IMG/VR virus record: IMGVR_UViG_3300031578_004185
Span: 3,779 to 67,778 of that record
Source of the DNA: a virus
Direction: 5' to 3' (one strand)
DNA: 64,000 nt
Positions 1-8,315 of the stretch are shown here, piece after piece. The position numbers and the translations under genes are program-made. How positions within the stretch are numbered: position 1 is the first letter of the stretch; each line of letters starts with the position of its first letter. The notes under the pieces were generated by a model that worked only from the letters and a program-made list of their open reading frames with translations, made no database searches and was not told the DNA's origin.

Positions 1-1561
1 GACGGACGACTCTGGTGTCGTCGGTATCCGTAATACCCAAGGCAAACTCTGCATATCCTTCGACCCCGCCGACCTGCTAGAATTTCTCCGTTACTCTTCC
101 AAGAAAACAGTGCGGGTTTTCTGGGATCTTGATGCATCTATCGCGTCAGTCCTTAAAACCCTCTCAAAATCGGTTCTGGTGCGTCTGGTGGCGTTTGACG
201 ACGACCTTTCGGTGTCGGGGCACCAGCTCTACTACCTGCCCGACCGGATGTTCCGTGTTGGCCGTTCTCGTTACTACTCTATTAGACAATTCTGGCCAAC
301 CTCTGAGCCGACTCCTGGAACCCTTGAAGAAGTCCAAGCTAAGGCAGACGAACTAGCCGAGACTCTCACCGATTGCGGCATGGGCGACTTCACCCGCTTG
401 GTATCCCCCATATCCGTGTTCGAGGAGACCGAGCTGGGGCAACAGACCTATAACTCTATTCCTAAGGGCTACGAGATACCGCCGTCCTGCTTCGAGTGCT
501 TGGAATATGCGTCCAAGTGTGATAAACGAGAGTGGGTATCAGCATACCAGCTCGGTCATTGGGTAGGGGGCGAGATCTGGGACTACGACGTGAACTCGAT
601 GTACCCTTCCGTAGCATCCAACTTGTTCAATTTACACGAGATGGAGATGTGGAAGTCGGACAAGTTCGGGTCCCGAGAGCAGGGTGCTTACTACGGTTTC
701 CTGCGAGGACGCCTCTACCTTGACCCGTCCTCACCGACTATTCACTGCTCCCCTATTATTGCTGATCTTGAGCGGCTCCCCGGCAACCCCGCCGGAGACT
801 TCGGGGACGACTACCCTCTCACTCTGGACGAACTTCGCCTTATCCAGCGCAACGGCTGGGGGGAGTTCCGTATGAAAGACGGCTGGTTCTTGAAACCTTA
901 CGCTGGTGTCCGCCCTACCAGACCCTTCAAGGAGATTATGGATCATCTCTACCAACAACGCTATAAGTCCGAGCTGGTTAGTTCTATTATAAAGGGTGTC
1001 GCTAATCAGCTAATCGGGAAACTCATTGAGACCCGCGTAGATGGTGATTATGGTAAGTTGAGAAACGATATTTACCACGCTTTAATATTGTCCCAGGCGA
1101 GAGTAAAAGTAGCCGAGTTCCTACTCAATAACGATGTCCAGAAGGACGAGCTGGTAGCCGTGCAGACTGATGGTGTCCGTATGACCAAGTTCGTTCCGGT
1201 GAAGGGCAACGGTATGGGGAGTTGGCGGTGTAATGGAAGCCAAAGCACAATTGTCGCTTCGCCTTACCGAGTTTTCTGTGGTGACAAGAAGCCTGGTCAT
1301 TTGACTCATGATATGCTTGTGTCGATGATACAGGAACATCCTCTCTCAAAATACTATGGAACAAACGTCAAGCATCGTTTAACTTTGCGCCAAGCACTTC
1401 AGATAGGAGATATAGCGTTAGTTGGTACAATTGATAACTTACCTGCACATATTGATTTACTGGCGCTCACTCGCGAGCAAAACAGGAACTTTTCTCGTTT
1501 CCCCCAAACTGGCTCAAGTCTACTTAGCAACCAGTACCAATCCACCCCAATAATTCTTTAG
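1..1561 (+). CDS. Divergent family B DNA polymerase (protein-primed-like), 5' partial
   Basis: Motif A DYDVNSMYPS, motif B KGVANQLIGK, motif C VQTDGV; the frame is open from base 2, so the start lies upstream of the window. Confidence 0.75.
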   Translation, partial: TDDSGVVGIRNTQGKLCISFDPADLLEFLRYSSKKTVRVFWDLDASIASVLKTLSKSVLVRLVAFDDDLSVSGHQLYYLPDRMFRVGRSRYYSIRQFWPTSEPTPGTLEEVQAKADELAETLTDCGMGDFTRLVSPISVFEETELGQQTYNSIPKGYEIPPSCFECLEYASKCDKREWVSAYQLGHWVGGEIWDYDVNSMYPSVASNLFNLHEMEMWKSDKFGSREQGAYYGFLRGRLYLDPSSPTIHCSPIIADLERLPGNPAGDFGDDYPLTLDELRLIQRNGWGEFRMKDGWFLKPYAGVRPTRPFKEIMDHLYQQRYKSELVSSIIKGVANQLIGKLIETRVDGDYGKLRNDIYHALILSQARVKVAEFLLNNDVQKDELVAVQTDGVRMTKFVPVKGNGMGSWRCNGSQSTIVASPYRVFCGDKKPGHLTHDMLVSMIQEHPLSKYYGTNVKHRLTLRQALQIGDIALVGTIDNLPAHIDLLALTREQNRNFSRFPQTGSSLLSNQYQSTPIIL

Positions 1562-1580
1562 AAAAATCTTTGGTTACCCC

Positions 1581-1609
1581 TTGACAAATGTTCAGTAGTA
1601 TGCTATGCT
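1581..1609 (+). promoter_or_regulatory. sigma70-type promoter with extended -10
   Basis: TTGACA(1581-86), 17 nt, TATGCT(1604-09), TG at 1601-02. Confidence 0.85.
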
Positions 1610-1615
1610 ATTTGT

Positions 1616-1783
1616 ATGGACATTAAAGAGGTTCGCAAGCAGTTGGGAATGACTTCTCAGGACTTGGCTGTAGTTCTCGGTGTATCTGTTGCTACTGTGA
1701 GTCGCTGGGAGACCGGGAAGCACAAGCCTTCCAAGTTGGCTCTGTTGCGTCTGAAGGAGTTGATCGACAAAATGAAAACTTGA
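1616..1783 (+). CDS. XRE/Cro-like HTH regulator (55 aa, probably leaderless)
   Basis: Manual translation MDIKEVRKQLGMTSQDLAVVLGVSVATVSRWETGKHKPSKLALLRL; ATG 7 nt after the -10 box, no SD. Confidence 0.9.
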   Translation: MDIKEVRKQLGMTSQDLAVVLGVSVATVSRWETGKHKPSKLALLRLKELIDKMKT

Positions 1784-1862
1784 TGGTTGCCGTGACTTGA
1801 TTTCGTGTGGCTTGAGGTTCCTTGTATTCAATCGGTTTTTATTAAGCTAAATTAAGCAAAAA
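1778..1862 (+). ncRNA. Candidate guide RNA 1: 5-nt-periodic array (KTG-like trimer + variable NN)
   Basis: TTG cc GTG ac TTG at TTC gt GTG gc TTG ag GTT cc TTG ta TTC aa TCG gt TTT ta TTA ag CTA aa TTA ag; pyrimidine at the trimer centre in 14/14 units; leader ACTTGATGGTTG and trailer TTAAGCTA..AGCAAAA shared with array 2. Confidence 0.65.
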
Positions 1863-1879
1863 GTAGAAGGAGGCATTTT

Positions 1880-2497
1880 ATGCCAACAGCAATACCAGTA
1901 TATTTTTGGGAAGCCGAAGTCGAGGTTGAAACAAATGACTTAGCCTTTTCTCCACAGACTAATACCGAAGGTCGAGGGGCATTGGCGAAGCGGATATTCA
2001 CAGCAGACTGGCTCCACGATGGTCAGGTCTGGTTCAGTCCGTCCAAGAGGCTAGGAGGGTGGCTGAAGTCGCAGTTGCCACTGGCTAGGTCAACCTATGC
2101 TAACCAGATGGCTGCGGTCAAGGTCTTCCCCGCAGATGGTGATGGGGAGTATGTCCTTATTGCCGAAGTGAGCGAGTTGGTTGGAGGCAATAATCCTCTA
2201 CCTATGGCTCATGTGCTACCGAAGGGGTTGTCGTGTCCTTACTGGACATATATTAACGTCCCACAGGAGCGTGGGACTGGGACGAGGGTTGCCCCAACTT
2301 ATTGGTATGAGTTGCATAAACCCGTTGTCCACCGAGTCCGCATCCTGAGCTTTGCTAGGGGCATTAGCCCTGAGATTGTGAAAGAGGCCCTGAGCAAGCT
2401 GGGCAGAGCTACCGGGATTGGCGATAAACATAGTGTTGGGAAGGGCAGATTCAAGTTGGTGAAGTTTGAATATAAGCAAGAGAAATTGGCACTTTAG
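1880..2497 (+). CDS. Solitary RAMP-superfamily protein (Cas7/Csm3-like)
   Basis: C-terminal glycine-rich loop LGRATGIGDKHSVGKGRFKL typical of RAMPs, N-terminal beta strand, 205 aa, strong SD AGGAGG; no other cas genes recognised. Confidence 0.75.
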   Translation: MPTAIPVYFWEAEVEVETNDLAFSPQTNTEGRGALAKRIFTADWLHDGQVWFSPSKRLGGWLKSQLPLARSTYANQMAAVKVFPADGDGEYVLIAEVSELVGGNNPLPMAHVLPKGLSCPYWTYINVPQERGTGTRVAPTYWYELHKPVVHRVRILSFARGISPEIVKEALSKLGRATGIGDKHSVGKGRFKLVKFEYKQEKLAL

Positions 2498-2507
2498 GAT
2501 ACTTGAG

Positions 2508-2587
2508 ACTTGATGGTTGAGTGTGGTACGCAGTTCAGTGTCGCGTGTCTCCTTGGATTGTACTGGGTTGTGTTAAGCTAAGCAAAA
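2508..2587 (+). ncRNA. Candidate guide RNA 2: 5-nt-periodic array
   Basis: Same 12-nt leader ACTTGATGGTTG (2508-19); GTG gt ACG ca GTT ca GTG tc GCG tg TCT cc TTG ga TTG ta CTG gg TTG tg TTA ag CTA ag CAAAA; central pyrimidine 12/12. Confidence 0.55.
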
Positions 2588-2604
2588 TATTACCGAGGTT
2601 GGAA

Positions 2605-3030
2605 ATGACGGAAAACGAGATAAACGAGAAGGTCAAAGAGTGGTTGACTAGCCAAGGGTACGTCTATAAGGGTGTCCTAAATGCCAAGCCTAAAGAGGGT
2701 GCTAATCCGAATGGCTATGGTCAAGTAGCAGTCCCCGACGGAACTAGGGATGTTCTTATTGACCATACCGGACACAAAGATAGACCTGTTGACCTTATTT
2801 GGATAGAAGCTAAAGGTTCAGGCATCGGATTGTCTATGCTCCTTCAGGGGTTCGCCAGAGTTGGCTACGCCGTTTATCATGGGGGCGGGCGAGGGTTACT
2901 TGCCTGTCCTGCTACCGAGTTTGATACGATGTTCGCCCAAAGGGATTTTCTGAAGGCTATCGGAGTCGCCAGTGAGAGGTCTTTGGGACTGCTGGATGGA
3001 GAGTCCGGGAGAGTTGAGTGGCTGACCTAA
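2605..3030 (+). CDS. PD-(D/E)XK restriction-endonuclease-like protein
   Basis: DVLIDH...LIWIEAKG catalytic pattern; probable start ATG 2605 after GAGG. Confidence 0.6.
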   Translation: MTENEINEKVKEWLTSQGYVYKGVLNAKPKEGANPNGYGQVAVPDGTRDVLIDHTGHKDRPVDLIWIEAKGSGIGLSMLLQGFARVGYAVYHGGGRGLLACPATEFDTMFAQRDFLKAIGVASERSLGLLDGESGRVEWLT

Positions 3031-3037
3031 GCAACTT

Positions 3038-3226
3038 ATGGGAGTTACACTGAGACAGGCGATCCAGCAGGGGGACGTCAGCAAAGTGGGGGAGCTGGAC
3101 GATCTACCTGCTCACTTGGATCTGATAGGGATTACTAGGGAGCAGAACAGGTACTTCCCGAAGCTCCCTAAGACAGGTAGGGCGTTGCTGAACGGGAGGT
3201 ACCAGTCGAAGGCAGTAGTCCTCTAG
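3038..3226 (+). pseudogene. Orphan C-terminal fragment of the polB-like gene (second allele)
   Basis: TLRQAIQQGDVSKVGELDDLPAHLDLIGITREQNRYFPKLPKTG aligns with TLRQALQIGDIALVGTIDNLPAHIDLLALTREQNRNFSRFPQTG at the end of 1..1561. Confidence 0.85.
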
Positions 3227-3231
3227 GGGTA

Positions 3232-3260
3232 TTGACAAACACTAAAGCCTGTGATAAGGT
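3232..3260 (+). promoter_or_regulatory. sigma70-type promoter
   Basis: TTGACA, 17 nt, TAAGGT with TG extension. Confidence 0.7.
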
Positions 3261-3270
3261 GGTAGGTAGC

Positions 3271-3450
3271 ATGAGAGCAGACGATATCCGAAGAATAAGG
3301 CTCAGTTTGAGTATGTCCCAGCAGCGATTCGCCGAGAGGCTGGGGGTCAGCATTACCACCGTGAACAGATGGGAGCGTGGTCGCTCTAACCCCTCTCCTC
3401 TTGCTCTGACACGGTTGCGAAGGATGCAGCGGAAGGTGGTGGTGGAATGA
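3271..3450 (+). CDS. XRE/Cro-like HTH regulator (paralog of 1616..1783)
   Basis: MRADDIRRIRLSLSMSQQRFAERLGVSITTVNRWERGRSNPSPLAL. Confidence 0.9.
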   Translation: MRADDIRRIRLSLSMSQQRFAERLGVSITTVNRWERGRSNPSPLALTRLRRMQRKVVVE

Positions 3451-4079
3451 CCAATCCTGTATCAATCAGCCCCAGTTCGTTCTCGGATTCCTTTCTGCTA
3501 AAGCGGTCTATGGAGTACGAGATCCCCGCGGACACCGAGAGGCGTTCCAAGTTCTCGGTATCCGGTTTCCCCACAAAGTTACTTAACGCTGTCAACTATA
3601 CTATTCCCAAGAGATTGGATGGCAAGTGGCGGAAGAGCATCGCCAACACGGAGCGGTTCCTGTTGAGCATCGGCATTCCTTTGCTGGACAAGGCGACCGA
3701 GAAGTGTTCTATCTTTAGAGAACTGATGGCAGAGGCTGTTGACACGGATGATGACGTCAAGCAAAACTACCTCCGCTCAATGCGCTTCCTCTATTCGGTT
3801 GATGACATGCGGATTACCGGTGGGAGAGAGATAAACCAAGGGGGTACGCAAGTGCAGTGCCTTGAGAGGGATGTTCAAGCTGTGAAGGAAGTACAGGTGC
3901 GGTTGGGGATGACGGGAGTAACGCAATCGGCACTGGTTGTCCTTTCTCTGGTATGGACACTGTCCACTGACAACGATAACCAGGTAGTGTCTATACCGAT
4001 ACAGAAGATATGCCATCGGGTGGTGACACAGTTCCGTGAGAAGGTAACCCTTTGGGAAGCGGAGTTGCGTCGCGGGTAG
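3447..4079 (+). CDS. Hypothetical protein (210 aa)
   Basis: ORF coupled to the HTH gene by ATGA overlap. Confidence 0.7.
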   Translation: MTNPVSISPSSFSDSFLLKRSMEYEIPADTERRSKFSVSGFPTKLLNAVNYTIPKRLDGKWRKSIANTERFLLSIGIPLLDKATEKCSIFRELMAEAVDTDDDVKQNYLRSMRFLYSVDDMRITGGREINQGGTQVQCLERDVQAVKEVQVRLGMTGVTQSALVVLSLVWTLSTDNDNQVVSIPIQKICHRVVTQFREKVTLWEAELRRG

Positions 4080-4102
4080 CAACAATGCTCTACTGCGCTA
4101 GT

Positions 4103-4174
4103 GCACTAATACACTATTACACTAACACACTATTACACTACTATACTATTGCACTACTATACTATTGCACTATT
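4103..4174. repeat. Nine tandem 8-bp repeats (RYACTANT), iteron-like
   Basis: gcactaat acactatt acactaac acactatt acactact atactatt gcactact atactatt gcactatt. Confidence 0.9.
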
Positions 4175-4183
4175 AAATAGTCT

Positions 4184-4251
4184 CGCGTGCGCGCGCGTAC
4201 GCGCGTGGGGGTCCCGGGGAGGGGGTAAGGGGGTGTGGGGGGAAGGGGGGG
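4184..4251. other. 24-nt purine/pyrimidine alternation followed by G-tracts (Z-DNA/G-quadruplex potential)
   Basis: cgcgtgcgcgcgcgtacgcgcgtg, then six runs of 4-7 G. Confidence 0.75.
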
Positions 4252-4319
4252 TTTTGTAGACTATTGGGAACACCGACCGATTATTTACCAACAACTCGAA
4301 AAATAATCCCTTTGCCCTA

Positions 4320-4348
4320 TTGACAAACATAGAAATCTGTGGTAATAT
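4320..4348 (+). promoter_or_regulatory. sigma70-type promoter
   Basis: TTGACA, 17 nt, TAATAT with TG extension. Confidence 0.8.
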
Positions 4349-4399
4349 TATAGCGTTCATAGTTTGTGCGAAACTTTAATAGCGGAGGTCATAGTTTAG

Positions 4400-4750
4400 G
4401 TGGAATTGAATATCAGTCAAAGGCAAATGGCTTGGAATGCGATAAACCTAGCGAAGAGGGAGTTAGCCAAGGGGGACTACGATTCGGTCCGCTCCGCGAA
4501 CTATATGCTCCGTGATCTGGATGCCACGAGAGAAGCGGGCTTATCGGGTTTGGCTTGGGCGATACATAAAGGCACCGCCCATAAAAACGATGTTCTAGGA
4601 CTGATAGAGTACCTTGAAGATTATTTGCTGCTTTTGACTGATACCGAGAGAGAAACTGTAGGATATGCTTTTATCACGGAGTACAAAGAGGAGCTGAATG
4701 CCTTTCTGTTACGGCAGGTACGCAAGGTTAGGGAGCATTTTGGTGGGTAA
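4400..4750 (+). CDS. Hypothetical protein
   Basis: 116-aa ORF, SD GGAGG, GTG start. Confidence 0.65.
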   Translation: MELNISQRQMAWNAINLAKRELAKGDYDSVRSANYMLRDLDATREAGLSGLAWAIHKGTAHKNDVLGLIEYLEDYLLLLTDTERETVGYAFITEYKEELNAFLLRQVRKVREHFGG

Positions 4751-4774
4751 AGTGACTGTTCTAGGAGGTTAAAA

Positions 4775-5257
4775 ATGCTGATAGATAAAGTAAAGGAGAT
4801 ACTGGGCGATCTGGAGTACACTGAGTACAATGAGTCAGGGAATAAGTTTATTGATGCTGCCCTTGATATAAAGCAAGTCAATGAAACTGCCAAACAAATC
4901 TGCCAGCTCTCTCCCAAATCCCCTGATAATCCAGAGGGGTACGAGGGTAGGTTGCTGACGGATGATGGGGAATTGAGGAGAAGGATTAGTAGGGTGCTAC
5001 ACAAGGCTATCAGGCAATTTGAAATTGAAGAATACCCCGAAGCATTCGACTTAAGTGTGCATATTGACCAAATCATAGCCAATACCCAAGCAAACTACAG
5101 GGAAAGGATAGAGGGGATACTGCAGATTTTCACAGATTGGGACAAATGGTCAGTTGAAGAAGGCGGTGAGAAGAAGTTCCAAAAGAAGTATGGCAGGGAT
5201 ACAGCCAGCATTTTAGACGTGGTAGAGCAAGCTCTCAAGGAGGAATTAAATGGATAA
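4775..5257 (+). CDS. Hypothetical protein
   Basis: 160-aa acidic ORF, SD AGGAGG. Confidence 0.7.
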   Translation: MLIDKVKEILGDLEYTEYNESGNKFIDAALDIKQVNETAKQICQLSPKSPDNPEGYEGRLLTDDGELRRRISRVLHKAIRQFEIEEYPEAFDLSVHIDQIIANTQANYRERIEGILQIFTDWDKWSVEEGGEKKFQKKYGRDTASILDVVEQALKEELNG

Positions 5258-5561
5258 AGAAGCAGTAGAGAAGATAGCAAAGAGTATGTTTCAGTTGGTA
5301 TTTTTGGTAGATGACAAAGAGATTGAGCAGCGCTGGGAGCATCTCCAGTTAAGTGTTAAGAGGCAGTGGAGCGATAAAGCAGAGAACCTAATTGAAGTTT
5401 TTGAGGAATTCGGCTACCGCAAACCAACTGAACCACCATTATTGAGTGATGAGGAGATAGATGAAGTTGCACGGGCAGAGAGTCGTCTTACTTGGCTACA
5501 ATATGGGCGTGATATAGCCCAAGCCCAGTTCCAACTCTGTAAAAAGCACTATGAAGGATAA
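5250..5561 (+). CDS. Hypothetical protein
   Basis: 103-aa ORF, SD GGAGG, overlaps upstream stop. Confidence 0.7.
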   Translation: MDKEAVEKIAKSMFQLVFLVDDKEIEQRWEHLQLSVKRQWSDKAENLIEVFEEFGYRKPTEPPLLSDEEIDEVARAESRLTWLQYGRDIAQAQFQLCKKHYEG

Positions 5562-5967
5562 GGAGGAAGATATGTTTAAGGAATTCAGTAAGAGAGTAAA
5601 GAAGGCTTTCTATCCCAAGAAACCCCCGACAAACTGGATGGCTTATAGCCGGGTAGCTTTTACGTGGTTGGTAGTAGGGTTCTGTAGTGGGTTACTGCTG
5701 ATAGTTATAGGGATAGTTCTTGTCGCAGAGGGTGGTGTTAAGCCAGTGGTCTGGTTCGTTGTTGGAGTTCTAGGTTTCATAACCCTCTACTGGGCTTGGA
5801 TAGCTCTCGATGATGCAAAGAAGGACGGACTGTTTGCGTTGTTAGGTGGCAGAGCCCGGGAATTGTGGTTGAGGAGAAGTGAGAAGCTAGGCATAAAAGG
5901 ATTACAAGAGGCTTTAGATAATTTTAACAAGAAAGGAGATGGCAAAGGAGGTGATAGGTTGAAATAG
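5551..5967 (+). CDS. Membrane protein (2 TM)
   Basis: Two hydrophobic stretches. Confidence 0.65.
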   Translation: MKDKEEDMFKEFSKRVKKAFYPKKPPTNWMAYSRVAFTWLVVGFCSGLLLIVIGIVLVAEGGVKPVVWFVVGVLGFITLYWAWIALDDAKKDGLFALLGGRARELWLRRSEKLGIKGLQEALDNFNKKGDGKGGDRLK

Positions 5968-6013
5968 TCTATTGGTATTTTAGGCAGACTTTAATAAACG
6001 AAAGGAGAAGAAA

Positions 6014-6664
6014 ATGAAAAGGAAACTGGCAATCGCTTTAATGTTGGCTCTAGCGGTATCACTCGTGTTTGGTTCTACTGTACTAGCATGGGACTACGAA
6101 GACCCACAAATCAACAAGAATGCCCAGATGGACAATGGCAAGACAAGAGGCTACTCTCTGGATGATATGAATGACAACGGGCAAGGAAATAGTCCTATAT
6201 ATCCCGATGAGGGCGATAATATCTATGTTGATACCTATAGCCATAACGGAGACCTTGTGCACATATCCTTACTAACCAAAAATGGCAAGCGAGTAAGAAA
6301 GTATTCAACAGAAGAGATGGCTCTCGCTGACCCTGGGAATACAGGTGCTTGGAAAGCCTACGATGGCTGTATGTTCTACTTTGCCCTAGAGCCTATGGGT
6401 TGGAATACTCCGGATGAGAAAACACTCTACTTTACAGTTGTCCTACCCGATGGTAAGCTAAAGGTAAAGCGTAAGGGCACAGTCCGGTACCAGGACATTG
6501 ACTTCTCAGACGATAACTGGCGAGTGCAGATACCTGCTAGAGTCCAATTATGGGTTGGCGGAGTTGGCAACGGCGCTGCCGATAAACTTATCCTGAGTGA
6601 AGACGGGTCTATCTGGAACAGCCTAAAGGTTATTGGCGGTGAGATTACCATCACTAAAGTTTAA
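6014..6664 (+). CDS. Secreted protein with signal peptide
   Basis: MKRKLAIALMLALAVSLVFGSTVLA signal, SD AAGGAG. Confidence 0.75.
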   Translation: MKRKLAIALMLALAVSLVFGSTVLAWDYEDPQINKNAQMDNGKTRGYSLDDMNDNGQGNSPIYPDEGDNIYVDTYSHNGDLVHISLLTKNGKRVRKYSTEEMALADPGNTGAWKAYDGCMFYFALEPMGWNTPDEKTLYFTVVLPDGKLKVKRKGTVRYQDIDFSDDNWRVQIPARVQLWVGGVGNGAADKLILSEDGSIWNSLKVIGGEITITKV

Positions 6665-6834
6665 CCTCTTGACTCAGCCCATCAGCTTAGGTTGGTGGAC
6701 TGGGATGAGGAGATTAAAATGATGGACATACTGACACCTATTGAGATGTTCCTAAGTGGCGTAGCTTGCGGGCTAATACTGGGAGTAATTGCCCGGTGGA
6801 TAGGTAGCAAGGTGTTTAAGGATAAAGAGGTCAA

Positions 6835-7068
6835 ATGAGCGTGAAGGGTTATTTGGTGATAGAGCCTAGATACCGGTTCATTATTACCTTCTTCCATTAC
6901 GTAAGTAGGAAGTATCTCGGGGGTTTGCCAGCGAAGCCCTACATATTCGTAGAGGTAGAAGGGGAGACAGAAGGAGAATTAGAGGCTTGTTATCCTCAAT
7001 CCCCAACGAGTAGGTCATACTGGTTAGGGGAAGGAAGAAAAGTTTGCTTGGAGGAGATACTGAGATGA
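6835..7068 (+). CDS. Hypothetical protein
   Basis: 77-aa ORF with SD GAGG. Confidence 0.5.
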   Translation: MSVKGYLVIEPRYRFIITFFHYVSRKYLGGLPAKPYIFVEVEGETEGELEACYPQSPTSRSYWLGEGRKVCLEEILR

Positions 7069-7169
7069 GAAGACTTGTAATGTTTTACTCCGCTCTGCTC
7101 TTGATAGTGGCAGGTGTGATGTGTGCTTGCTGGGATAGTGTAGTGAATTATAACTTTAGGGCATGGTGA

Positions 7170-7703
7170 ATGAAGAAGGATAGTATCGTAATGTTAGCTC
7201 TAGCTTGTTTAACAGTTGGTGTTGTATCAGGGCATTACTTAACACTAGCAGAGCCAGTAGAAATAGAGACACAGGTTCTAACCATTGCCCAAGTTGAGCG
7301 AGCGCCGGAGTATATTACTAAGGTTGAGTATGTACCCCAACCCTATGAAGTGATTAGAGAAGTTGAGGTAATAAAGGAAGTACCGGTAACACTGCGCAAG
7401 TTCGAGAATACAGAAGAGCTATTGAGGTTTGTTAAGTGGCTCAAACTGAATGTTCCGTTCCAACCGTTCGGTGACCACCGATGTGGTCTGGATGCTGATT
7501 TAGTCCAACAACTAGCTTGGGCGCAGGGGTATAATGTTAATGTGGATATTACGGAGAATGGTAAACATCTAATCCTTAATGCTGTGATGGCGGACGGCGA
7601 TGTTTACACCATGTACCCGCCGTACTACGGGATACACAAGGCGGGTTACATTAAGGGTTGGCACGAGTATAACGAGAACCTATGGCGGGAGATAGTAGGG
7701 TGA
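7170..7703 (+). CDS. Membrane-anchored protein, possible transglutaminase/Cys-protease-like C-terminus
   Basis: N-terminal hydrophobic anchor; HRCGLDADL...KHLILNAV with Cys-His-Asn spacing. Confidence 0.45.
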   Translation: MKKDSIVMLALACLTVGVVSGHYLTLAEPVEIETQVLTIAQVERAPEYITKVEYVPQPYEVIREVEVIKEVPVTLRKFENTEELLRFVKWLKLNVPFQPFGDHRCGLDADLVQQLAWAQGYNVNVDITENGKHLILNAVMADGDVYTMYPPYYGIHKAGYIKGWHEYNENLWREIVG

Positions 7704-7925
7704 GCGGAATAACGAATAAGCTTGACCACCCCTGCCGTGTTTGTGGTAGTAATTGTTGGTGGTTGCGGGATAATCGATGGGGTAGACCGGAGTGGCTTTG
7801 TTGTCGGTGCCCCCCTAAACCGCCTATGTAAACGGTTCTCAATCAGTAATGGAGCTTATATGAACACGCAAAAGAAGGAAGATATGAATAAATGGTACCC
7901 AGAGATAACTAAGGAGATTGGGTAA

Positions 7926-8315
7926 ATGCCGTTAGATTTTAAGCCGACCAAAGCATGGATTAGGGAACACAAAGTTAGACCCAAGGAGTGTATCCACCCT
8001 GACACTCCTTGCTACTGTGTGCTTGATCACTTTGACCATCGTGGTTGTGGGTTCTGTGTCGGTATAGCTCTCGCCCCAGAAGACGACTTGGACATGATTA
8101 GATTCTGTGATATAACTTATGATACCGAGTCAGGAGAGACAGTCAGTACTAGTAGACAGTGGCATCCGAACGAAGCCCAACTGGTCAGCACCTACCTTTC
8201 AGTGGCCGTAATAAATGCTTGGGGTCTCTTGTCCGAATACAGGAAACAACTAGGAAAAATGGGCAGGCAGAGAACAAGAAAGATGCACAAAGGAAATAAC
8301 GCAAAGGGAGACTAG
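7926..8315 (+). CDS. Cys/His-rich hypothetical protein
   Basis: CIHPDTPCYCVLDHFDHRGCGFC. Confidence 0.6.
   Translation: MPLDFKPTKAWIREHKVRPKECIHPDTPCYCVLDHFDHRGCGFCVGIALAPEDDLDMIRFCDITYDTESGETVSTSRQWHPNEAQLVSTYLSVAVINAWGLLSEYRKQLGKMGRQRTRKMHKGNNAKGD

Follow-up and report, generated by a model that had tools for sequence, protein, structure and literature searches.

VIPR systems, described in 2026, combine a RAMP protein (Vipr), an accessory gene (vap) and guide RNAs, the vrRNAs (bioRxiv 10.64898/2026.04.26.720920, 10.64898/2026.04.26.720927, 10.64898/2026.10.15.759431). The free dinucleotides of these guides read their target with one skipped base, usually the wobble position of a codon, on either strand (bioRxiv 10.64898/2026.04.26.720920). 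The systems were presented as silencing weapons between phages, and the locus studied here offers comparative evidence for a different use. It lies near the start of a window of 64,000 nt, the whole stretch of DNA that was analysed, which covers bases 3779-67778 of the 68-kb IMG/VR virus record IMGVR_UViG_3300031578_004185 and to which all coordinates refer unless another locus is named. In this window, a VIPR cassette stands between polB, a family B DNA polymerase gene with a foreign 3' end, and the displaced original end of the same gene, and one of its guides matches the polB of cassette-free relatives. Our results lead us to favour, tentatively, the explanation that the cassette homed, by guided cutting of a cassette-free polB by Vap and repair from a carrier genome.

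Several other mobile systems invite comparison. Free-standing homing endonucleases of phages, such as Seg and Mob of T4, are encoded beside the gene that they target; relatives free of the element hold the target, and the carrier is resistant. Co-conversion covers the flank between the cut site and the element, and the element spreads in mixed infections. At our locus, recognition would rely on a programmable RNA read by a RAMP filament rather than on the DNA-binding domain of the nuclease, several guides can be carried at once, and cutting is presumed. The hybrid atp6 gene of Allomyces macrogynus, to which Paquin et al. reportedly drew attention in 1994, is said to have received a foreign 3' end with a mobile endonuclease open reading frame (ORF), the original C-terminal piece being displaced downstream. 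There too, a foreign gene end came with a mobile element, left a functional hybrid gene and displaced the original end, although the Allomyces gene is mitochondrial and its GIY-YIG endonuclease is a protein-only enzyme fused in frame, with no RNA guide. TnpB and IscB, of the IS200/IS605 family, are RNA-guided nucleases of selfish elements whose guide recognises the element-free site, and repair then restores or spreads the element. They differ from the present case in belonging to the RuvC/HNH families and in using contiguous guides, unrelated to those of VIPR, that derive from the transposon end and not from a pentamer code.

The cassette of the window resembles the described VIPR systems in being virus-encoded and aimed at related rival elements, and in having a lone single-RAMP-domain protein of ~20 kDa with one small accessory gene. 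Its guides also follow the described plan, with 9-16 pentamer units of two free bases each and a constant tail, one base skipped at codon wobble on either strand, and, for its first array (A1), no self-target of at least 80% in the window. The differences are of four kinds. The repeat has K-T-S as its constant trimer, not GGY, and may represent the 'NNNNG' class of the preprint; the Vap is a PD-(D/E)xK, XisH-like putative nuclease in a virus, whereas the preprint assigns nuclease Vaps to host defence-island types; there is an XRE regulator before the operon, and the arrays form the 5' leaders of the next gene; and the guides point to the cassette's own neighbouring genes, where a conversion tract, orphan gene ends and an allele with an empty site are seen. 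The kind of system is thus known from the 2026 preprints, and what is new is the UUG-type repeat, the viral PD-(D/E)xK Vap, the flank-directed guides, and the tract with its orphan ends and empty site. The word 'homing' was not found in the main text of the VIPR preprints, the structure preprint aside.

A mosaic polB and its empty-site allele

The polB gene (529 aa) extends from 28 nt before the window to 1561; it has a weak DNA_pol_B_2 match and a PHROG DNA polymerase match. It is followed, in this order, by a strong promoter, a helix-turn-helix gene (HTH1), a 205-aa gene, a 141-aa gene, the frame of the orphan tail, a second helix-turn-helix gene (HTH2) and an ORF of 210 codons (ORF210). The segments that record the history of polB are the following.

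1-1219, + strand: native 5' part of polB (identity to L049 and L059, 5' tree)
1220-1561, + strand: foreign 3' part of polB with the current tail, apparently acquired by co-conversion (identity to L059 and L049, breakpoint, GC content at third codon positions, 3' tree)
3044-3226, + strand: orphan polB tail, the last 60 codons and the stop, with frame intact (identity to P0002, L049 and L059, GC content at third codon positions)

The initial annotation had noticed that a unit made of the polB tail, a TTGACA promoter and an XRE HTH gene occurs twice around the RAMP cassette. The repeat is real. A 62-codon open frame (3038-3226) repeats the last 60 residues of polB; the current tail (1379-1558) and the orphan tail (3038-3223) are identical at 33/60 residues (55%, E 3e-27), and HTH1 (1616-1780) and HTH2 at 24/48 (50%, E 3e-17). 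As the DNA identity of the two units is only ~55-60%, they do not stem from a recent tandem duplication. A TTGACA is present shortly 3' of the polB stop in both, and the second one (3232-3237), with its weaker -10, fails the promoter scan. One detail of the unit had to be revised: the two copies are not equivalent in membership, since the mobile cassette includes HTH1 whereas HTH2 is a resident gene, as discussed below.

Base composition sets the two tails apart. The GC contents of five 60-nt segments on which the initial annotation relied were reproduced exactly (58.3, 56.7, 40.0, 38.3 and 60.0%), and its view that the orphan tail is native and the current 3' end foreign is borne out by GC content at third codon positions (GC3), which is 62% in the polB body (2-1243), 39% in 1244-1558 and 71% in the orphan tail. 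The scan of composition and codon usage gives the same division, foreign for 1244-1561 and native for the orphan tail; the GC content of the foreign polB 3' part is 43%. Sequence identity agrees, the orphan tail sharing 47/60 residues with P0002 and the current tail 39/60, while 3044-3151 is 85% identical to L049 and the current tail 58%. The ratio of nonsynonymous to synonymous rates (dN/dS) of the orphan tail is 0.13 in the comparison with L049, the only usable pair because synonymous changes are saturated for most tail pairs, and thus gives no sign of decay.

A further reference for this history is a cassette-free allele, L059, found by using the exact ORF210 protein as an anchor (it occurs on eight contigs, and four of these places, L056-L059, were examined). 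There, polB runs uninterrupted into a tail of the 3038 type, the HTH2 promoter, HTH2 and ORF210, which is the joint that had been predicted for relatives without the cassette. The window is 93% identical to L059 at 1175-1219, with 36 identical bases up to 1219, and 59% identical at 1220-1558, the first mismatch being at 1220. On the other side of the cassette, identity is 64% at 3044-3088, 92% at 3089-3226 and 98% at 3227-4171. This profile places the foreign tract at about 1220-3088. The segment replaced in the recipient (L059:46-249) contains the target of guide A1 (L059:70-101), 24 nt from its left edge.

Comparisons with other relatives converge on the same left edge. The closest polB is that of L049 (77% protein identity), whose DNA is 80-87% identical to the window up to ~1200 and ~60% from 1244 to the stop (~58-63% for 1220-1561). 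The maximum chi-square breakpoint falls at 1236 (p<0.001 against L049, p=0.002 against L002), so that the left breakpoint, at 1236 relative to L049 and at 1220 relative to L059, lies 8-24 nt upstream of the A1 target at 1244-1275, in agreement with the earlier remark that the shift begins near the predicted target site. Phylogenies of the two parts of polB also differ, as anticipated and with moderate support: the sister of the window is P0002 for the 5' part (support 99/98) and the polB of L004, which also bears the cassette, for the 3' part (92/93), and the orphan tail falls with the P0002-P0007 group.

A duplicated tail might also arise in assembly, by joining two strains, and the record is indeed metagenome-assembled from an environment where related strains co-occur in the same samples. 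Three contigs from three other samples (L056-L058), however, bear the cassette in the whole arrangement and are 99.8-100% identical to the window, and contigs from marine-sediment runs of another study (X4 and X5) bridge both the junction between polB tail and HTH1 and that between vap and orphan tail with 0-2 differences. The matching contigs from other samples and runs exclude an assembly artefact, and we give a chimera practically no credence. Outside the source run, contigs were too fragmentary to span the left breakpoint. A further run, X6, holds both pieces of the carrier and joints like that of L059; this co-occurrence of carrier and empty-site alleles amounts to an opportunity for transfer only.

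The cassette, its guides and their targets

The cassette and its arrays are laid out as follows.

1880-2497, + strand: vipr, a single-domain RAMP protein of 205 aa (predicted fold)
2605-3030, + strand: vap, a putative nuclease of PD-(D/E)xK fold, XisH-like, of 141 aa (predicted fold)
1781-1863, + strand: vrRNA array A1, with leader TGATGGTTG at 1781-1789, ten pentamers and a final NN at 1790-1841, and a tail that begins with TTAAGCTAA from 1842
2511-2594, + strand: vrRNA array A2, with leader and tail as in A1 and the NN string GT GT CA CA TC TG CC GA TA GG TG
1244-1275, + strand: escape version of the A1 target (S T I V A S P Y R V F), 15/22 against A1
3033-3043, + strand: right junction, AACTTATGG, resembling the start of the third-array leader ACTTGATGG

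The 205-, 141- and 210-aa proteins had no match in Pfam or PHROGs, and the cassette was assigned to VIPR by protein fold, array layout and target rule. The model of Vipr has a predicted local distance difference test (pLDDT) score of 89.6, and the 50 best PDB matches listed by Foldseek are all RAMPs (Cas7-11, Csm3, Cmr4 and type VII Cas7, E ~2e-5). VIA Z reaches 9.4, most named AFDB matches are RAMPs (Csm3/Cmr6/Csm4 clusters), and residues 160-198, which include the glycine-rich loop, match the PADLOC hidden Markov model of Csm4 (E 3e-5). The model of Vap (pLDDT 88.6) has structures of the XisH family as its top fold matches (2okf and 2inb, E 4e-5), followed by the nuclease domains of MspJI, NucS/EndoMS, DdmD and Can2, and its residues D53, H54, E68 and K70 are invariant in 40 homologues. 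The predicted complex of Vipr and Vap scored 0.03, which speaks neither for nor against a complex. The vap gene lies 3' of vipr in every locus examined that has sequence downstream of vipr. All this fits VIPR: a single RAMP domain with glycine-rich loop, pentameric vrRNA genes, targets read by the skip rule, an adjacent vap and no strong self-target. Conversely, the region has a single RAMP gene, no recognisable cas1, cas2, cas10 or cas11, and no CRISPR repeat-spacer array in 1-4400, and so does not qualify as a CRISPR-Cas system of type III, IV or VII-like kind.

Between the window and L004, a block of 73-95% identity extends from ~1580 to ~3030 and includes HTH1. We considered whether the current polB tail belongs to this shared cassette and ruled it out, the tails being 43-66% identical between the two loci. 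The cassette was absent from all 37 polB loci fetched from metagenomes, and no relatives were found when viral_contigs was queried with polB and with the Vipr alignment. Positions 1-4200 had no blastn match in the phage and plasmid collections, and 1-8000 had no match in Rfam.

The intergenic regions at 1781-1863 and 2511-2594 are copies of one element, with the leader TGATGGTTG, 5n+2 nt of pentamers, each a free dinucleotide (NN) followed by a K-T-S trimer, and the tail TTAAGCTAA. The trimer is mostly UUG or GUG, a variant consensus relative to GGY. Leader and tail are conserved across loci and the NN positions vary. The variable part measures 47, 52, 57 or 62 nt in 13/14 arrays, the exception being A2 (53 nt, one base over 5n+2). 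Cassette loci L004, L005 and L009-L011 have two or three arrays each, and single arrays were recognised in L006, L008, L052 and L053. In L004, L009 and L052 the third-array leader ACTTGATGG follows the vap stop, and the resemblance to its start of the 11 nt after the vap stop in the window suggests that these are the truncated right end of the cassette. The cassettes of L009-L011 have no XRE gene; between their start and vipr are a short ORF that resembles a zinc ribbon (CxxC...CxxC) and a TTGACA promoter (L009:2550-2707), and a 553-aa gene lies downstream of the cassette. This gene is matched in frame, at a borderline 19/24, by the array that immediately precedes it.

Guides were scored by reading their NN dinucleotides with the one-base-skip rule, and shuffles of dinucleotide order (60 for A1) served as control. 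The NN string of A1 (CC AC AT GT GC AG CC TA AA GT TA) thereby spells codon positions 1-2 of P-T-I-V-A-S-P-Y-K-V-Y in polB. The match is perfect (22/22) in five cassette-free loci (L002, L015, L040, L049 and L050), 21/22 in L013 and 20/22 in L016, L054 and L059, also cassette-free. Both cassette-bearing polB genes, those of the window and L004, match at only 15/22 (68%), below the maximum of the shuffled controls (18/22) and level with the best other match in the window's own genome. In both carriers, the same four codons are altered relative to the target: P to S or N, a synonymous change of Ser from AGY to TCN (TCG in the window), K to R and Y to F. The perfect gapped target that the initial annotation expected in cassette-free relatives is therefore there, and the outcome that would have spoken against its proposal, namely relatives sharing the 3' end of the window and matching the guide no better, is not what we observe. 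The exact gapped A1 pattern had no match in viral_contigs.

For A2, no target scored above the shuffled-order controls in the ~350 kb compared, and the same holds for the second and third arrays of L004 and for the arrays of L005, L006, L008 and L053. The 18-base pattern of A2 had a sole exact match in viral_contigs, in L055 (a single ORF of 2,269 aa), where it is not in frame and spans a stop codon; roughly guessing how large the collection is, we judged it to be due to chance.

Three other loci repeat the relation between a guide and the gene beside it. The first array of L004 has its target on the opposite strand of polB, the window included.

878-906, - strand: target of L004 array 1 in the window polB, motif DGWFLKPYAG (gapped search, 19/20)

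This array matches at 20/20 in L049 and L050, at 19/20 in L002 and the window, and at 17/20 in L004 itself, and the bases that it skips are wobble positions. The polB of the window would thus be a target of the rival VIPR of L004. In L052, a third array (L052:746-870) lies after vap and directly upstream of an HD-domain gene, and reads the first codons of that gene at 28/30 in L050, 26/30 in L002 and 22/30 in L052. Finally, L050:983-1151 holds an orphan polB head (21 codons, MTSITAYEVW...), then a solo array, then the current polB start. This array reads polB residues ~140-151 at 23/24 in L034, 22/24 in L002 and 16/24 in L050; the 5' part of the L050 polB is foreign, with breakpoints against different relatives at window-equivalent positions 288-459. 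A guide without vipr, as here, matches the orphan vrRNAs of bioRxiv 10.64898/2026.10.15.759431. The head arrangement of L050 mirrors, at the opposite end of the gene, the tail arrangement of the window.

The four matched arrays (22/22, 20/20, 23/24 and 28/30) exceed the maxima of their shuffled-order controls (18, 17, 19 and 22), and all four targets, on both strands, are wobble-aligned. In the window, L004, L050 and L052 alike, at least one guide reads the gene adjoining its own position, and the own copy of that gene matches less well, although the copy in L004 still reaches 85% (17/20).

L050 also has a DUF1848 gene right after polB (L050:2931-3715, the same as L014:1696-2480), followed by an orphan polB tail fragment that comprises the last 28 residues and is 61% identical to the orphan tail of the window. 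It is a second, independent tail duplication with different cargo.

These comparisons bear on the idea that the region underwent ordinary mosaic recombination at a variable spot, in which case the guides would serve competition only and the presence of the target inside the tract would be a coincidence. The region after polB does differ in almost every relative: L002 has DUF2284 there, L050 has DUF1848 and the orphan tail fragment, L049 has an unrelated gene of 238 aa, and L054 has small ORFs. The DUF1848 insertion indicates that a tail can be duplicated with cargo that has no recognisable nuclease or guide. Coincidence would have to extend, however, to four independent arrays that target the gene next to their own position, all wobble-aligned and with reduced matches in their own genomes, to both mappable replaced polB ends, where the target falls within the replaced segment or at its border, and to both cassette-bearing polB genes, which depart from the A1 target at the same four codons. 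We hold this explanation to be improbable.

Homing, silencing and what speaks for each

According to the explanation that we favour, gene conversion would have brought the cassette (1562-3043) into an L059-like virus. During mixed infection, protomers of Vipr loaded on vrRNA A1 would recognise codon positions 1-2 of PTIVASPYKVY in the cassette-free genome, and the Vap nuclease would break the DNA at or near this site. The cassette-bearing genome would then serve as repair template, the left arm being the part of polB before the site and the right arm the polB tail. Repair would thus copy the guide-resistant polB 3' end of the donor together with the cassette, and the resident tail would be displaced and survive as an orphan. 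Two hallmarks of homing are seen at the locus: an empty-site allele that holds the target (20/22 in L059, 15/22 in the window) and a flank, 1220-1561, that changed with the insertion. The mosaic gene and its escape codons support the initial proposal that the cassette arrived with a resistant polB 3' end. Its second half, spread by guided cutting of cassette-free alleles, presupposes expression of the vrRNAs, a complex of Vipr with vrRNA and cleavage by Vap; from these we infer the causal link between targeting and insertion. The nuclease fold of Vap and the position of the breakpoints near the targets lead us to favour cleavage.

The same cassette might act without cutting. VIPR would repress the polB of rivals, recombinants with a resistant 3' end would be selected, and the linked cassette would hitch-hike with them. 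The characterised VIPRs are transcriptional silencers that act on either strand, the guide-target data and the mosaic structure fit silencing equally well, and rescued recombinants under selection are expected to leave a similar footprint. Since polB is presumably essential, silencing it would impose strong selection. Some of our observations are less easily accommodated: the accessory gene has a nuclease fold with a D...ExK motif invariant in 40 homologues, the left edge of the tract lies 8-24 nt from the target in spite of ~1.2 kb of upstream homology, and the breakpoints of L050 flank its target on both sides. None of these is decisive. We regard silencing alone as rather unlikely to be the whole explanation.

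Several points weigh against homing by guided cutting. Characterised VIPRs silence transcription and do not cut, and nuclease Vaps were placed in host defence-island types, not in viral ones (bioRxiv 10.64898/2026.04.26.720920). No RNA run was listed for the region. No close donor is among the sequences compared, the best matches of the foreign polB end being only 69% identical in protein (P0011) and ~55-60% in DNA (L004); the polB tails of the window and L004 are less similar than the polB bodies, and the cassette of L004 follows polB without an orphan tail. Over its first 45 nt, the orphan tail has an identity to L059 of only 64%, which makes the right junction and the route of the right-hand join uncertain. 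Guide A2 had no target in the sequences compared. Finally, approximately unbiased (AU) tests of the 5' and 3' trees, built on short segments, were not significant (p 0.108, 0.148), so that the incongruence between the trees draws on branch support (91-99).

Homing of the window cassette may be one instance of a broader pattern. Nuclease-partnered VIPR cassettes might be natural viral RNA-guided homing elements, that is gene drives, with guides directed against conserved, wobble-proof motifs of flanking genes, a resistant gene end copied along with the cassette, and orphan heads and tails that could serve as later homology arms; we advance this generalisation with reserve. Should Vap cut where the guide binds, a RAMP protein would form the basis of a programmable homing element, and VIPR would be linked to the biology of homing endonucleases and of TnpB-type systems. 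It would also offer a possible explanation for the mosaic replication genes of this virus group, and selfish spread, rather than defence, could then have favoured early RNA-guided nucleases. The case lends itself to a direct test, since the alleles with and without the cassette are both available, as are guide and target.

Regulators and neighbouring genes

The remaining features of the region are regulatory or resident.

1581-1609, + strand: cassette promoter, TTGACA-17-TATGCT with an upstream TG (promoter scan, 10/12 matches)
1616-1783, + strand: HTH1, XRE-family cassette regulator of 55 aa (Pfam HTH_3, E 3e-13)
3231-3450, + strand: resident promoter and HTH2, with ATG at 3271 and 59 aa (Pfam HTH_3, E 5e-13; gene calls on the identical contigs L057 and L058)
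3447-4079, + strand: ORF210, resident downstream gene (exact protein on eight contigs; 98% identity to L059 over 3227-4171)

HTH1 is 94% identical to the HTH gene that precedes the L004 cassette, and similar genes accompany vipr and vap away from polB in L005, L008 and L053. Because it travels with the RAMP gene in these unrelated contexts, we consider it part of the mobile cassette. Its ATG lies 7 nt downstream of the cassette promoter and its mRNA is therefore probably leaderless; HTH2 appears to be leaderless as well. HTH2 is directly 3' of polB in the empty-site allele L059, and this presence makes it a resident gene. The possibility that HTH2 is the remnant of an older, decayed cassette was provisionally set aside, as no trace of an array or of vipr and vap follows it and it stands directly after polB in L059.

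The promoter region of HTH2 (3230-3257) is 79% identical over 28 nt to that of the next operon (aligned at 4318-4345), whose promoter at 4320-4348 (TTGACA-17-TAATAT) passes the scan. This likeness suggests a common operator or promoter type for the resident early genes. Between ORF210 and that promoter, positions 4082-4190 hold about ten tandem units with a period of 8 nt (CTAnnnCA-like), which are not pentameric and are without VIPR leader or tail.

For ORF210, an Atlas features search gave scores all at or below 0.85, leads at best. Distant relatives of its protein, with 33-36% identity over ~80 residues, occur in L060-L064, on contigs of metagenome-assembled genomes of Acidobacteriota (Chloracidobacterium and Pyrinomonadales), which may give a weak hint at the host range of related elements.

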